Shown piece by piece: positions 1,480 through 52,480 of a stretch of DNA of 64,000 nucleotides. The notes under the pieces were generated by a model. It made no database searches and had not been told where the DNA came from. It worked only from the letters and a program-made list of their open reading frames with translations. This DNA is from Psammoneis japonica. Its lineage: Eukaryota. The translations under genes were made by a program, and so were the position numbers. Every line of letters begins with the position of its first letter. The stretch's first letter is position 1. Where the stretch lies: assembly GCA_008632985.1 (NCBI GenBank), contig QPGO01000087.1, forward strand, positions 124,001 to 188,000, in the 5' to 3' direction.

Positions 1480-3627
1480 TGGATGCAGTGATGAACATTC
1501 TCTTCTTGCGCCTTGTCGATATGTCATGAACATTCTCTTCGTGCACACAAGTTTTGAGGCGCTCTTTGGCATGCAGAAAAATCGTTGTCTTTGGCCTCTT
1601 TGCAAGAAGCGAGCTGGCACGTCCTGCGCAACGTCAACGTTCAACATTCGTTCATGCTGGCGTGGGTTCGCGCGCGCGTACCTACAGCACACCTGTCAGA
1701 GGGGGCGGCGGGGGTGGTCATCATCTTTCTGTCTCTCCAGTCTACTCTCTACGGCAGCAGAGAGTGCAGTGCCGGCACGCATGATGCAGTGCTGCCGGTG
1801 ACCCACAGAGCACAGGGGTTGTGGGTTGTGGCAGCAACACCAGTGTGCAACTGCAGAGCAGGAAGATCCAAATCCCAACCCACTGCCATGCCACAGCAAG
1901 CCAGTCAGAAGGGCAGAGAAGGAAAGGGTTGGTGTCAAAAACGGGTTAATCTCATGTGTTGCTGGCGCTGCGGCCAGCATGGCTGAGCCCCGCACAAAAC
2001 AAAAGATGCCCTTGCTGAGCCCAAAGGCCAAAAAAGACTTTGCAGCGTGAGTCTCTCCCAACTCAGAGAAGCGCCACATGCAGACGTGACTTGTTTCATG
2101 TTGCATGGCCGAGTTGCTGTGACCCCTGTCCGGAGCCAGCACCCAGAGCTGTTTTCCCACGGCAAAACCGCGCAAACATGCCTCTGCGGCGATGCCCTCT
2201 TTCGTGCTGCCGCTGTTCAACACAACAGCTGCTCCCCCAAACACCACTTGTGCTCTTGACAACAGAAGCCGAGCCTCGTGTTGGGCGAGGCATGTCCTTT
2301 GTTGTTGTGCACTTTCGCCCTGGTCTCTCATGAAGCACCGGCACCAGCCCACTTGCCTCTGCTCTTCTGCTCCCATTGCGGCTCTGCCGGTTGCGCATCA
2401 CTGGAAAATGTGTGTCTCTGTTGCCATCCACAGCAGCCCATCACCACTGGCACATCTGTCAATTCTGTCCTTGCGCCACCTGCTGCAGCAATGTGACCAT
2501 CTGCAAATCTCTGCCTCTTGAGACACTCTTCTTGTGCACCAGCCTGAGTTCAACATGGTGCGCGACAAACTCAAAAATGATTTTGTTGGAACTCAAAAAG
2601 AGATGGTTGCAACTGACATGTCGACTCCTCTTTGCAATGTCCTCATCAACCCAACAGCTGCAAGGCAGCTGCGCACATCATCAAAGATGCCTGTTGGCCA
2701 AGCTGCAAAACTGTTTGTGCAGTGTTGCACAGACTGCACAAACGCAAAGGCACTGCAGCTGTGTGCACTCTTGATGGTGCACACAATCTGCTCAAATGGC
2801 AAACTGATGCAAAGCACAAAGCCAGAAAAAACACCTTTTGAAGAGATGGCGCCATTTCTTCTTCAGCAAAACTGGCCAGAACAACACAGACTTGAGGCAC
2901 TCAACAGGTGGAAAAGTGTCATTTGTCCAAGAGGTGGCATCATGCTGCCAATCAAAAAAGTTTTTGACCAAGAAGGAATCCTGTGCATTCAAGTTGCCAT
3001 TGAAGCCAAAGCCCAGAATGTTGAGATGCAAAATTCTGGGATTGTCACCCGTGCAGAATCTGATGATGGCAACATCTGTGGGCACAACTGTGAGAAATGG
3101 GCCACAAACTTGAGCCCCCACAATGGCAACTGCTGCATTTTGGTTGTGACTCAAATCAATGCTCAGGAGAGTGCTGTGAGGGGCCAAGTGGGAGGATTGC
3201 AAGAAGCATGCCATTCCTGCCTGCTTTTTGTGGCTGTGACTGCAACATCAAGGCAGACAGCTTGCCTTTTGTGGAGACGATGGAAGGGCACATGACTGCG
3301 GTGGACAAGAGGCAGTTTCTCAGAGACATTGAAACAAATTTCAAGTGGCCGCCAGCAGCACCAGCTCACAGCATTGATGGTGGAGGGCAGCCTGCCAAAG
3401 GATTTGCAGAAGAAGCAGAACATGCCATGAAAATGTTCCTTGGTCACCCCATCCTCAGATTGACACCAAAAGAAGGATCCGACCTGAGTGAGGTGCCATT
3501 GAACTGGTGCCTCCATGTGATCACCCACCCACAATTTTTAAAAAAACAGTGGCAAAGGATGGGGAAGATGCCTTGGATTTGAAAAGTTGCCCACGGCCAT
3601 TCTTGGTGGCCTTCTTCAAAGCAATGG

Positions 3628-4023
3628 TGACAGGATTTGAACAGGATTTGGGTGCGCGCGAAATGTCGCGTGCCATTTGGTTTGCCGCGCACAGTTTTGT
3701 GTGCTCTTTGGTTCCGCGCGTGCGCGCGCCATGCAGTTTGCTTTGAGCCACACGGCTCACAAGAATGACAACCTTGAGTCCAGTCGAAGCCAACACGAAA
3801 ATCCTTCTCCTGCACAGTTCCCAGTGCAAATTCTGCAGGAAAAAAACCCGGATGTGGACACTTTTTGGACACTCCTGGACACAAGGATGACAGCAGCCCG
3901 ATTGCACCGACTTGCACGTCTTTCGGCTCCTGTGACGGTCTCTGAGCGGAGACTCATCTGCCATTTAGACAGCAGCAAGGAGTTGTTGTTTGAATTCTTG
4001 CCATTTGCCTTCAATTTCTGTCA
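3628..4023 (+). repeat. 5' LTR (396 bp)
   Basis: TGACAGGATTTGAACAGG...CTTCAATTTCTGTCA, repeated at 10425-10705. Confidence 0.95.
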
Positions 4024-4040
4024 GATTAACAGTCTTGCTC
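4024..4040 (+). promoter_or_regulatory. Putative primer-binding site complementary to a tRNA-Asn(GTT) anticodon arm
   Basis: GATTAACAGTCTTGCTC abuts the 5' LTR; its reverse complement GAGCAAGACTGTTAATC contains the Asn anticodon loop CTGTTAA. Confidence 0.6.
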
Positions 4041-49900: not shown

Positions 49901-50616
49901 GCCTTGGAGATCTCCCAAAGCAGAAGTTCAGGTGCTGGCTGGAAGACTGGGAGCAGCCGCTGCTCAAGAAGAATGATCCAGTTGCAGAGGCCAAGCTGCT
50001 GGAGAAGTGCGAGGGCTTGACGTTTTGTGTGGTGGACGATGACGCTGCACTTGCACTGTGTTGAGCAGCAACCTTGACTGCCAGAAGGGTCGAAATGGTG
50101 GGTGGTGTGTCCTTGGAATGCCTCTGGATTGTGATGGCGTTGATGATGCAGTGTTGGAGCCATGGATGGTCAACGAGTGCTTGGCTGAGATGATCCAACA
50201 AACCAAGCAGCCAGCCTCTGTCAATGTGGAGCTTTTGGAGATGGAGAACAGCAGTGGAATCGACAGCAGTGGCAGCAGCAAAGCAGATTAATTTAAAGTG
50301 CAATTGCAACAGTCTAGAGTGCCGTGTGAATGACATTTTCTGCTCCACTCTACCACCGGCAGAGCTGCTGCCAGCCAGCTGGCAGTGTGTGAGTTCTGTC
50401 TGTCTACCGCACAAGATAAAAAAGCACATGCGCCTAAACCAAATCAATCCAGAATTGCCGCTTTCCACTCGTTTTTTGTTCCCCTCCCCTGACCTCTTTC
50501 AGACGTTCCTTCCCGCAAAATTACCCTCATTCCCGGGATTACCCCGAAAGGGAAAGGCAACTCCCCATTGCCCTGGCCATTTTGGGGAATCCCCAAACGG
50601 GTGAAACCAAACTGAG
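46945..50616 (+). mobile_element. hAT-superfamily DNA transposon, inactivated
   Basis: TIRs CTCAGTTTGGTTT(TG)CC and GG(TG)AAACCAAACTGAG; 8-bp TSD ACACAACA / GCACAACA (7/8 match); subterminal CCCGGGA/TTACCC motifs; internal transposase. Confidence 0.88.
47451..50291 (+). pseudogene. hAT transposase (BED finger, DUF659-like core, C-terminal dimerisation region) with frameshifts and a probable intron 48547-48631
   Basis: WMCGWCK...AIAHLCK; FLGDGAAIKK; FFFDGASNVQKAG; HGAEH; LGMGAAERSWGDVKQLKTNKRSHLSGDKMEKQ. Confidence 0.85.
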
Positions 50617-51869
50617 GCACAACAAGATCCGTTGCTGCTGCAGCAGCAGAGAAGGCAAATTGTTGCCAAACTGCATCTCTGCCCCTGGCATCCTGGAGGG
50701 TTCAACAAAGAACTGGCAAGTGGCGCACCAGCAAGGGACATGCTGGACTCAGCGGCAATGATTTTTTTCCCCACTGAAGCCATGCAGCCAGTGCAGATGA
50801 GACTCCAAGTTGTTGTTGTGCTGCACGCCTGTGCCTGCTCTTGCAACAGCTGCCCTTGCAGTGCAGTTGCCATCCACATTGCAAGCTGACGCCCACTTTT
50901 GGAGCTGCCAAAAAGAGCTTTGTGCGTGATGCTGCCTGCTTCTTTGGGTGTGGCAGCTGCAGCCCAAGGAGTGCCCCCTGCTGTCCTTGATGAAAACTTG
51001 GAGGGGCAGGGGGGAGAGCATCACTGCAAGGGATGGCGCAGAGAACAAAGCCCTGTGTCCTGAACATGAGCATTTCATTGCAAGGCCATTTTGAAGAAGG
51101 CATGCAAACTCAGAAGGGGGGGGGGGGATTCAATGCTGCTGGGTGGTTCTTCATGGCTTGGGCTCCTTGACAAATGATCAAAAAGAAGTCAACAACAGAT
51201 GGGAGGCCATTGGCATGCACTGAGCCAACTTGAAATGAGCAAGTGCTGCAATGCAGTGCAGTGCACTCATCAGAGGCATTTGTTGAGATGTCACACTTGC
51301 TTGCAGCCCTGAGAAGAAGCTCTGTGGGCTTGAGAGAGCCTTGGATCATGACACCACACACACAAATGCAGCACACTCACATCACATGACCTGCAGTCTT
51401 TGTCAAGAAAAATTGTTTGTCAACTGTTGACTGCTCACTTTTTCAAAAGTTCAGCTGCCGCATCAACCTGCAGTTTCCAAATGTGCAGCATGGAAAATTG
51501 TTTGTCTTTGTTGCTCACAGTGCATTGTTGTCATTGTGTGGCAAGCTTGTCACTGCTCACTGCAAACACCCAAACACTCATCTCTCCTTTTTGTTGCAGG
51601 TTTATGATGATTTGTTCATTGACAAGGAAAGTGACCCAGAAGCAATGACCTGACATGCTGGTGGCCCTCACAAGGAGTTGGTCCTTGGCCATCATTGTTG
51701 AGTGTTTTTGGCCTGGTGCAGATGACCAGCCAGCACCTGGTGCCTGCCTCCTCTGTGTGGGGTGGGCCCTGTGGGCTGGTTTGTGGGGTTTTAACTCTGC
51801 CTCTGTTGCAGAACCAACTGCTCAAACACAAAAAAGCCTGCCCCAATTTTGCTTTCTTGGACGAGAAAT

Positions 51870-52480
51870 GAGCAGAGCACTTGAAAGAAGCTGTTCTTGA
51901 TGCTGCTGCTGGCCTCACACAATCTTTGCCCTGCATGGCTCAACAAAAGATCTTGAGCATCACAGCAGCACAGTGTGATGTGGAGCTGTCTTGTTCTTTT
52001 TGGCTGAAACCTTTGCCATTGTCTTTGACCCTTCTTCTGGCAATTGTGAGAGAAAGCACACTTCTGACAAACAGAGAGAGGCGCTCTCTTTGGGCAACCT
52101 CTCCATGTGCTGGGCCAGTCAAACAGTCTGCAAGCCATGCATCAGCAAAGCCACTCAAACAGCCAAAGCAACCTCTCCCACACCAGCTTTGCTGGTGGAG
52201 GAGCACTGAAAAGAAGTTTTTCTTCATTCTTGCGCCACTGGTCTCACACAGTCTTTTGCCCCACAGCTCAACAAAACATCTTGAACATCATGCAGCAGCA
52301 CAGAGTGTGATGTGGACCTTTTTCATTTCTGACTGAAACCTTTGTCGTTGCTGCATTTGATCCTTCTCAGCCAGCGATCATGGCTGAGAGAAAGTGGACT
52401 TCTCTGACAAACAGAAAGAGAGAAATGCTCTCTGTGGTCTCTGTCCACTGGACCGATCGAACAATCCGCAAGCCGTACAT
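51870..52480. repeat. Diverged tandem duplication, period ~330 bp
   Basis: Shared blocks GAGCAC..AAAGAAG, CTCAACAAAA.ATCTTGA.CATCA, GTGTGATGTGGA, CTGAAACCTTTG, GAGAGAAAG and CTGACAAACAGA in 51870-52145 and 52198-52480. Confidence 0.8.

Follow-up and report, generated by a model that had tools for sequence, protein, structure and literature searches.

What could strip a single dinucleotide from some stretches of a chromosome while the genes beside them keep it? The question is raised by a stretch of 64,000 nucleotides from the diatom Psammoneis japonica (GenBank assembly GCA_008632985.1, contig QPGO01000087.1, positions 124,001 to 188,000 of the forward strand), which we call the window and number from its first letter. 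Sharply bounded blocks within it have lost nearly all of their TpA and gained TpG and CpA. We are confident that they record a mutator that acts after integration, is restricted to particular loci and turns TA into TG or CA on both strands. The preliminary description of the window had proposed a repeat-targeted hypermutation system with no described counterpart; its mutator was largely right, but repeat targeting has yet to be proved, and a single preprint has since anticipated the claim of novelty.

The depletion is far beyond chance. The window contains 1,548 TA in total, with 101 in 26,692 bp of block DNA and 1,128 in 29,503 bp of flanking genes; at the density of the flanking genes the blocks would hold about 1,020, and about 900 are absent. 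In 1-kb intervals, the observed/expected ratio (o/e) of TpA is 0.00-0.23 within the blocks and about 0.4-0.78 across the flanking genes, while that of TG plus CA is 1.4-2.0 within and about 1.0-1.3 beyond. TG and CA are elevated about equally, block by block. The o/e values of AA plus TT and of AT stay close to normal inside the blocks; the retention of AA runs and the ordinary TpA content of neighbouring genes both hold as first described. A mild shortage of TpA (o/e about 0.55) is the background everywhere in this genome. Of 42 TA-free gaps of at least 250 bp, 41 fall in blocks, the longest measuring 1,592, 1,547 and 1,128 bp; the flanks have gaps between TA of 26 bp on average and 281 bp at most (n = 1,130 gaps). 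The blocks begin and end abruptly, within about 50 bp. Dense TA continues until 1947, 30145/30218 and 43642, and resumes at 17053, 26151, 32072 and 52476; at 43642, a TA every 10-20 bp gives way to 509 bp with none. A search for terminal repeats at the block ends gave nothing beyond the null distribution. Most blocks are poor in CpG as well (o/e 0.07-0.44), but stands at about 0.8 in the Copia element and in block 3. The blocks and the elements in or between them are as follows, with ratios given as o/e.

1948..3627, no strand: hypermutated block 1a; 1 TA in 1,677 bp (0.01), CpG 0.33, TG 2.03, CA 1.57
3628..10705, plus strand: dead Copia long terminal repeat (LTR) retrotransposon; TA 0.11, CpG 0.79
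10706..14532, no strand: hypermutated block 1c; 14 TA in 3,903 bp (10706-14608; 0.05), CpG 0.17
14533..15097, no strand: non-autonomous terminal inverted repeat (TIR) element, like a miniature inverted-repeat transposable element (MITE-like), with normal TpA; 50 TA in 14609-15280
15098..17052, no strand: hypermutated block 2, the continuation of block 1; 8 TA in 15281-17053 (0.07), CpG 0.07
24579..26150, minus strand: hypermutated block 3, one haplotype of a gene; 6 TA in 24600-26151 (0.06), CpG 0.80
30146..32071, no strand: hypermutated block 4; 7 TA in 30200-32072 (0.05), CpG 0.25
43643..52475, no strand: hypermutated block 5; 28 TA in 8,835 bp (0.04-0.07), CpG 0.20-0.44
47941..50147, plus strand: remnant of a hAT-like/DUF659 transposase gene within block 5; homologues P0274-P0277

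These coordinates are essentially those of the preliminary description, which counted five blocks. TpA is lost in each of them, but blocks 1 and 2 are one block, split by the 565-bp TIR element. Block 1a is the DNA into which the Copia element later inserted, and block 1c was continuous with it before that insertion.

The direction of the change can be read from the Copia element. A Pfam match to RVT_2 (E = 7.7e-14) identifies it; self-blastn and motif positions place its LTRs at 3628-4023 and 10425-10705, and an AATGG/ATGG direct repeat flanks the whole. By tblastn with 22 long homologues, gag-pol remnants extend over 5257-10393, with frameshifts near 7033, 7860, 8300 and 9110. Compared with these homologues, the polyprotein keeps Tyr in just one of 26 consensus-Tyr columns; the remainder have His (10), Cys (11), Leu (3) or Phe (1). 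A His at such a column corresponds to TAY becoming CAY and a Cys to TAY becoming TGY, and the balance between the two indicates that both strands are hit. Non-Tyr residue types are each kept in 69-100% of columns. Arg is the second most affected, its CGN codons having turned into Cys, stop, His or Trp, which is a CpG signature. In the reverse transcriptase (RT) domain all seven consensus Tyr are now His or Cys, and the catalytic YVDD has become HVDD. The destruction of catalytic tyrosines, predicted earlier, is thus borne out, with 21 of the 26 Tyr columns now His or Cys.

The nucleotide alignment gives the same picture. Across 48 relatives aligned at the DNA level, 2,894 TA dinucleotides (a tally in which identical window sites are counted repeatedly from relative to relative) correspond to CA in the window at 36%, to TG at 25% and to TA at 4%, whereas the 15 other dinucleotides are kept at 33-61%. 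At the 45 window sites where TA is the majority state, the window has TG at 20, CA at 16, TA at 3 and something else at 6. The substitutions are therefore directional and dominated by TA to TG or CA, and with 36 of 45 majority-TA sites changed in this way, an A:T to G:C mutator acting at TpA on both strands accounts for them. Its action extends beyond the retrotransposon. In the hAT-like gene, Tyr is by tblastn the least conserved residue, kept at 1 of 19 positions relative to P0274 (5 Cys, 4 His) and at 1 of 12 relative to P0275. That the blocks hold both an LTR retroelement and a DNA transposon, as had been noticed, is confirmed by these two identifications.

The timing of the damage follows from the two LTRs. 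Aligned to each other they have 22 mismatched positions, 18 of which are TA- or CG-derived, including TG versus CA at 4, TA versus TG at 3, and CG versus TG or CA at 7. In a control pair, a tandem duplicate in normal DNA (55736/56402), 17 of 71 mismatches are TA- or CG-derived. Because the LTRs were identical at insertion and now differ at TA-derived sites, the damage was done after integration and on both strands; the TG-versus-CA sites need two independent hits on opposite strands after integration, which excludes editing of RNA or cDNA. The ancestral TA content inferred for the LTRs is about 12 per 290 bp, a normal value, and the Copia element would have come in with an ordinary complement of TpA. 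It has since lost about 85% of its TpA and only about 20% of its CpG, so the TpA process is much faster than 5-methylcytosine (5mC) decay; the remaining LTR sites are about 1.4% different. By our estimate the process would run at a few hundred times the background rate. Two side observations concern these repeats: the 5′ LTR carries 107 bp (3773-3879) absent in the 3′ LTR, either a post-insertion indel or an insertion in one LTR, and the control pair is a tandem duplication of about 660 bp (55736-56394 and 56402-57057) at 88% identity in normal, TpA-containing DNA.

The pattern of outcomes also carries information on how the mutator works. The TG and CA outcomes fall into 23 strand runs, where 26.7 are expected (P = 0.18), and no processive action along one strand is seen. 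Surviving TA in the blocks, set against a similar length of flank, number 0 versus 98 for ATAT and 25 versus 48 for TTAA, 3 versus 180 for ATAC plus GTAT, and 20 versus 97 for CTAA plus TTAG. These counts hint that RTAY is struck more than YTAR and that a wider sequence context plays a part.

Relatives of the Copia element elsewhere show that the family is not intrinsically free of TpA. Eighty related metagenome Copia loci have TpA o/e of 0.27-1.07, and 78 of them keep Tyr (median 70% of columns, no Cys) at TpA o/e of 0.46-1.07. The two others carry the same signature as the window: locus L061 has 1 Tyr, 9 His and 7 Cys in 23 Tyr columns, and L017 has 8 Tyr, 10 His and 5 Cys in 28. Both have lost TpA while their CpG o/e is 0.80-1.02. 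The converse is found in L071, L055 and L053, with CpG o/e of 0.01-0.25 but TpA o/e of 0.46-0.49, and L055 keeps 36 of its 65 Tyr columns. Loss of TpA without loss of CpG, and of CpG without TpA, makes the two processes separable. 5mC deamination resembles the TpA process in feeding TpG and CpA, is present in the same blocks and is common among the related Copia loci (CpG o/e down to 0.01); it differs in that it cannot remove TpA, and here the loss of TpA is the more complete. As a separate observation, six loci (L071, L055, L053, L012, L010 and L007) combine CpG o/e of 0.01-0.25 with TpA o/e of 0.46-0.52, that is, ordinary 5mC decay without the TpA process. Among 149 aligned RT cluster representatives, 4 lack any Tyr and about 5 more are partly converted to Cys or His, all but one of these from ENA metagenome assemblies. 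Several Tyr-free Copia proteins from other assemblies (P0143, P0159, P0223 and P0255) likewise have Cys or His at Tyr columns.

The loss of TpA changes how such DNA reads as coding sequence. TAA and TAG cannot occur without TpA, which leaves TGA as the sole possible stop codon. We count 88 stop-to-stop frames of at least 120 aa overlapping the block regions and their margins, long and on both strands, with overlapping pairs such as 5202-6308(-)/5242-6087(+), 6575-7831(+)/6898-7716(-) and 43599-44570(-)/44522-45445(+). Gene callers would output false, Tyr-free proteins from TpA-free blocks, polluting gene sets and protein databases. Tyr-free transposon proteins could, by the same token, serve as a cheap screen for a TpA-erasing system.

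Sequencing reads support the blocks and suggest that the process continues. One public sample contains this stretch; two runs, here X1 and X2, were compared with the window as contigs, and a third, X3, gave no contigs on it. X1 contigs, built from 31-mers at a depth of about 55-60, reproduce the TpA-free sequence in blocks 2 and 4, with other letters at 2 positions in 15097-15893, 3 in 15963-19457, 2 in 30672-31154 and 6 in 31721-32222. Since these short-read contigs carry the same TpA-free letters, the long-read base-calling artefact that the preliminary description had raised is excluded. Three of the four substitutions between the window and X1 in block 2 are exchanges of TA with TG or CA, at 15282 and 16717 (TA in the window) and at 16820 (CA in the window). 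This makes 3 events at about 10 block-2 TA sites against 0 of 247 in the adjacent 7 kb of genes (Fisher p = 4e-5), or 2 of 9 in block 2 when only present TA sites are counted (p = 0.0011), a contrast drawn between two data sets and not a measured rate. Because the residual TA differ between the window and X1, the process has seemingly been at work since the two diverged, and it is probably ongoing. In the genes over 17054-24139, the window and X1 differ homozygously at five single bases and by a few indels of 1 bp, about 1 per kb; either the assembly and X1 stem from different haplotypes or strains, or errors persist in the assembly. X2 contigs leave out GT..AG introns of 72-114 nt that have the same sense as the open reading frames (ORFs), and on account of these spliced contigs X2 behaves like RNA, with no run recorded as such. 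They are absent over 14000-17169 and 30484-33000, a blank that is no evidence of silence.

Block 3 allows two alleles to be compared. Its open frame (24836-25858, minus strand) has no Pfam match and a homologue, P0121 (367 aa, from another assembly), at 46% identity, with which it shares the conserved segment PWQ.EFLES.GI.TA.QF.KAKKR...KVALHIWA.TCK. The gene appears to be diatom-specific and single-copy. Over 24204-25858, X1 has two forms, each at about half depth (33 of 62), which we read as two haplotypes about 6% apart. The X2 contig (record 11, depth 49) is the form that the window does not have, with 103 differences and 7 gaps. Among the 30 of these differences that are listed, TG or CA in the window stands against TA in 8 and against CG in 9; the reverse, TA in the window and TG or CA in the other form, occurs in 2, and 11 are of other kinds. 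The window haplotype of block 3 is the more mutated, and the less mutated form is the one in the RNA contigs. With the differences listed in part and contigs that drop minor variants, silencing of one allele is something that we infer.

The TIR element is the counterpart of block 3, a repeat that has been spared. It is 565 bp long, with 26-nt inverted ends (14533-14558 and 15072-15097) and CAGT on either side. Its k-mer depth in X1 is 6,640-9,770, against about 55-60 in adjacent DNA, which is more than 100 times single-copy, and X1 contigs lack it, running straight from 14527 to 15097 and from 14436 to 15098. The element inserted very recently into DNA that was already old and mutated, and its family is high-copy and probably active. 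These results lend no support to repeat targeting as first proposed: TpA is normal in a family above 100 times single-copy depth, and a single-copy, expressed gene has been mutated in one of its haplotypes.

A process of this kind has been described once before. According to the accessible part of a 2026 preprint (Mettrop et al., bioRxiv 10.64898/2026.01.13.699255), two viral insertions in mutation-accumulation lines of the chlorarachniophyte Bigelowiella natans took 231 of the 302 nuclear mutations. Of those 231, 230 were A to G or T to C, every one of them on TpA, and the rate was about 6e-7 per site per generation. The rates are orders of magnitude above those of the flanks, and ADAT2 is proposed as the enzyme, with a report cited that amphioxus ADAT2 edits DNA. 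The B. natans genome is also said there to contain 124 clusters poor in TpA and rich in CpA plus TpG; most of them lack annotation, and RT and DDE domains are over-represented in them. The same signature having been reported in B. natans, the statement that no described system has it no longer stands. The accessible text of the preprint makes no mention of diatoms, and our literature search found no report of TpA hypermutation in diatoms, the preprint being its sole match, whose supplements may list more target types.

The two cases agree in the main features: A:T to G:C changes at TpA only, giving TpG or CpA according to strand and confined to discrete regions, and TpA-poor, CpA+TpG-rich, mostly unannotated DNA with RT-type content. 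They differ in several others. The host here is a diatom, a stramenopile, and there a chlorarachniophyte, a rhizarian. The targets identified here are a Copia and a hAT-like element and one allele of a gene, whereas there they are insertions of nucleocytoplasmic large DNA viruses (NCLDV) or virophages. TpA o/e here is 0.01-0.11, near saturation, compared with 0.45 in the B. natans NCLDV region as given in the accessible text. CpG decay co-occurs here, and the LTR pair supplies evidence for action after integration; the B. natans work has de novo events from mutation-accumulation lines, where we have differences between window and run and between alleles. Judged by its signature, the diatom process would be of the same kind as the TpA hypermutation of B. 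natans.

How might such a mutator operate? We read the blocks as integrated, mostly mobile DNA in the diatom nuclear genome, on which the mutator acted after insertion, stopping within tens of bases of the block edges and outpacing the decay of CpG to TpG and CpA. Coding capacity is ruined as Tyr codons turn into His or Cys. Taken as a whole, the account given here is in our judgement quite probably the best explanation. Its parts carry their own weights. We favour, with moderate confidence, the view that a heritable silent state, in the form of chromatin marked by 5mC and possibly directed by small RNAs, selects the targets, and not copy number. Pointing this way are the CpG decay in the same blocks, the contrast between the two alleles of block 3, the high-copy TIR element with its normal TpA, and the methylation of transposons by diatoms, as described in the accessible part of PMC9998398. 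The silenced chromatin invoked in the preliminary description is accordingly better worded as a suggestion, drawn from two observations: CpG has decayed in the same places, and the RNA contigs carry the less mutated allele.

The chemistry is a more tentative matter. DNA adenine may be deaminated to hypoxanthine, which is then read as G, by an enzyme related to ADAT2 or TadA, a candidate that we would sooner doubt than assume. The natural tRNA substrate of ADAT2 and TadA is U33-A34, that is, 'TA', and the TpA preference seen here matches this context. TadA and ADAT2-ADAT3 deaminate A after U or T, and evolved TadA, in the laboratory adenine base editors, acts on DNA. To our knowledge, no natural chromatin-targeted DNA adenine deaminase has been established. 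The ADAT2 proposed for B. natans points to the same class of enzyme. Pfam scans of the ORFs in the window revealed no gene for a causal enzyme, and no DNA adenine deaminase was seen among them, in agreement with the preliminary description.

Among other explanations, a trigger like that of repeat-induced point mutation (RIP), a fungal process, survives best, though we think it unlikely. Here duplication or homology sensing, perhaps in the sexual cycle, would select the targets instead of chromatin state. Fungal RIP is alike in its dinucleotide-specific transitions, its action in situ on mobile DNA and on both strands, its fairly sharp limits and the permanent inactivation that it causes. Two of the identified targets in the window are transposons, repeated when active, the blocks have sharp edges, and some diatoms have DNMT4, related to fungal RID, according to the accessible part of PMC9998398. 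RIP, however, changes CpA to TpA, creating TpA and lowering GC, whereas here TpA is removed and CpA and TpG are gained. It also needs duplication and a premeiotic stage, while the high-copy TIR element, which may be too short or too recent, has escaped here, and block 3 is single-copy with only one haplotype heavily mutated.

A thymine route to the same substitutions is, in our view, distinctly improbable. In it, a TET/JBP dioxygenase would oxidise T at TpA to 5-hydroxymethyluracil (5hmU) or 5-formyluracil, and mispairing or error-prone repair would give T to C. TpA is self-complementary, so A to G on one strand is indistinguishable from T to C on the other. 5-Formyluracil is mutagenic; 5hmU itself pairs with A. 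A dinoflagellate TET/JBP enzyme makes 5hmU, which is tied to transposon silencing in the accessible part of PMC11572971, but the base-resolution 5hmU map of Breviolum minutum is without a sequence motif, as far as the accessible part of PMC11071213 goes. Nothing in the window bears on TET/JBP chemistry, and the literature search gave no diatom data.

Editing before integration, by an ADAR-like enzyme on retrotransposon RNA or by deamination of cDNA or extrachromosomal DNA, is very improbable and was rejected. ADAR and APOBEC resemble the process in causing transition hypermutation of selfish nucleic acids by deamination, and ADAR favours a 5′ U and hyper-edits repeat RNA (bioRxiv 10.64898/2026.01.13.699255, accessible part). 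ADAR, however, edits a single strand of RNA ahead of integration, whereas here chromosomal DNA is changed on both strands at TpA, and APOBEC changes C and not A. The LTRs differ at TA-derived sites, four of them TG versus CA, His and Cys are balanced at 10 to 11, residual TA differ between the window and X1, and the targets that are not retroelements (a DNA transposon, non-coding DNA and one gene allele) are also affected.

A sequencing or assembly artefact, whether from miscalled modified bases or from polishing error, has hardly any probability either: the X1 31-mer contigs carry the TpA-free sequence at a depth of about 55-60, and the change of Tyr to His or Cys recurs in unrelated public assemblies. 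Miscalls of base J or 5hmU, as might occur in a kinetoplastid or dinoflagellate, were rejected on the grounds that the host is a diatom and that the short-read contigs agree. Least probable of all is an intrinsic composition, in which elements avoid TpA under selection against TA-targeting insertion or UpA-cleaving nucleases; TpA is mildly low throughout, but the idea was rejected as contradicted by the related Copia loci, which keep Tyr and TpA, and by a Copia element here that is frameshifted, has lost its catalytic Tyr and has LTRs that diverged at TA sites after insertion.

As to what the blocks contain, the Copia and hAT-like elements are mobile in origin, and block 3 resembles an allele of a host gene. 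For the hAT-like remnant, PF04937 (DUF659) is found in the homologues P0276 and P0277, and P0275 is a Discostella pseudostelligera protein, DUF659 domain-containing according to UniRef. Pfam searches with 90 block ORF queries (18 ORFs twice) gave only RVT_2 and sub-threshold matches (XPG_I, ESM4 and others), and a Protein Atlas search of the block ORFs gave no usable match. About 60% of the block DNA is without recognisable content in Pfam, Protein Atlas and viral contigs. Blocks 1c, 2 and 4, what remains of block 5 and, apart from one weak match, block 1a are of this sort. One of the sub-threshold matches, to XPG_I, lies in the open frame at 2522-3292 (plus strand) of block 1a (E = 0.001; 19.9 bits, where the cutoff is 24.9), and this frame may represent a nuclease gene in decay. 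Outside the blocks, the ORFs belong to ordinary eukaryotic genes, encoding a rhomboid, a UDP-GlcNAc pyrophosphorylase, a NatA auxiliary subunit, and bZIP-PAS, ANTH, ankyrin and myosin proteins. The best named relatives of the UDP-GlcNAc pyrophosphorylase come from the diatoms Cylindrotheca, Nitzschia, Bacillariaceae and Seminavis at 58-66% identity, and the best without a name stands at 73%; the window is accordingly diatom DNA and not that of Bigelowiella.

Several points weigh against the reading of the blocks as products of a TpA mutator of the B. natans kind. The proven B. natans targets are viral and no block here is shown to be so: scans of the block ORFs, including 44390-45442, against viral contigs found no relatives, and with no matches in these scans, in Pfam or in Protein Atlas, a viral origin of the blocks is neither shown nor excluded. 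The signature occurs in just 2 of the 80 related metagenome loci, and is thus not general among hosts of the family. X1 belongs to the same sample series as X2 and is possibly related to the assembly data, so that its independence is partial. The comparison with the reads covers 40 of 233 differences, and that of the alleles 30 of about 103. The TG-versus-CA mismatches between the LTRs could in principle come from CpG instead of TpA, and an independent test of the struck strand did not confirm the context preference (17 versus 10, p = 0.25).

What the locus adds is, first, a wider host range: TpA-specific hypermutation had been described in one chlorarachniophyte, and the diatom case extends it to a further group. 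Beyond the B. natans report, the LTR pair places the action after integration, and the process is far faster than 5mC decay in the same DNA; one allele is hit with the other spared, and a young element of high copy number is left untouched. A DNA adenine deaminase, should that be the enzyme, would give the laboratory adenine base editors a natural counterpart. That a diatom and several metagenomic Copia lineages carry the signature suggests a route of genome defence that is widespread, and possibly ancient, in major marine primary producers. It is quite possible, if on balance a little short of likely, that diatoms and chlorarachniophytes, perhaps all of the stramenopile-alveolate-rhizarian lineage, share a natural adenine base-editor defence that works allele by allele at DNA marked by 5mC or small RNAs. 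Such a shared defence, turning TpA into TpG or CpA a few hundred times faster than background, would erase Tyr codons, TATA, poly(A) signals and TA target sites, and would be a functional inverse of fungal RIP with no need for sequence duplication.

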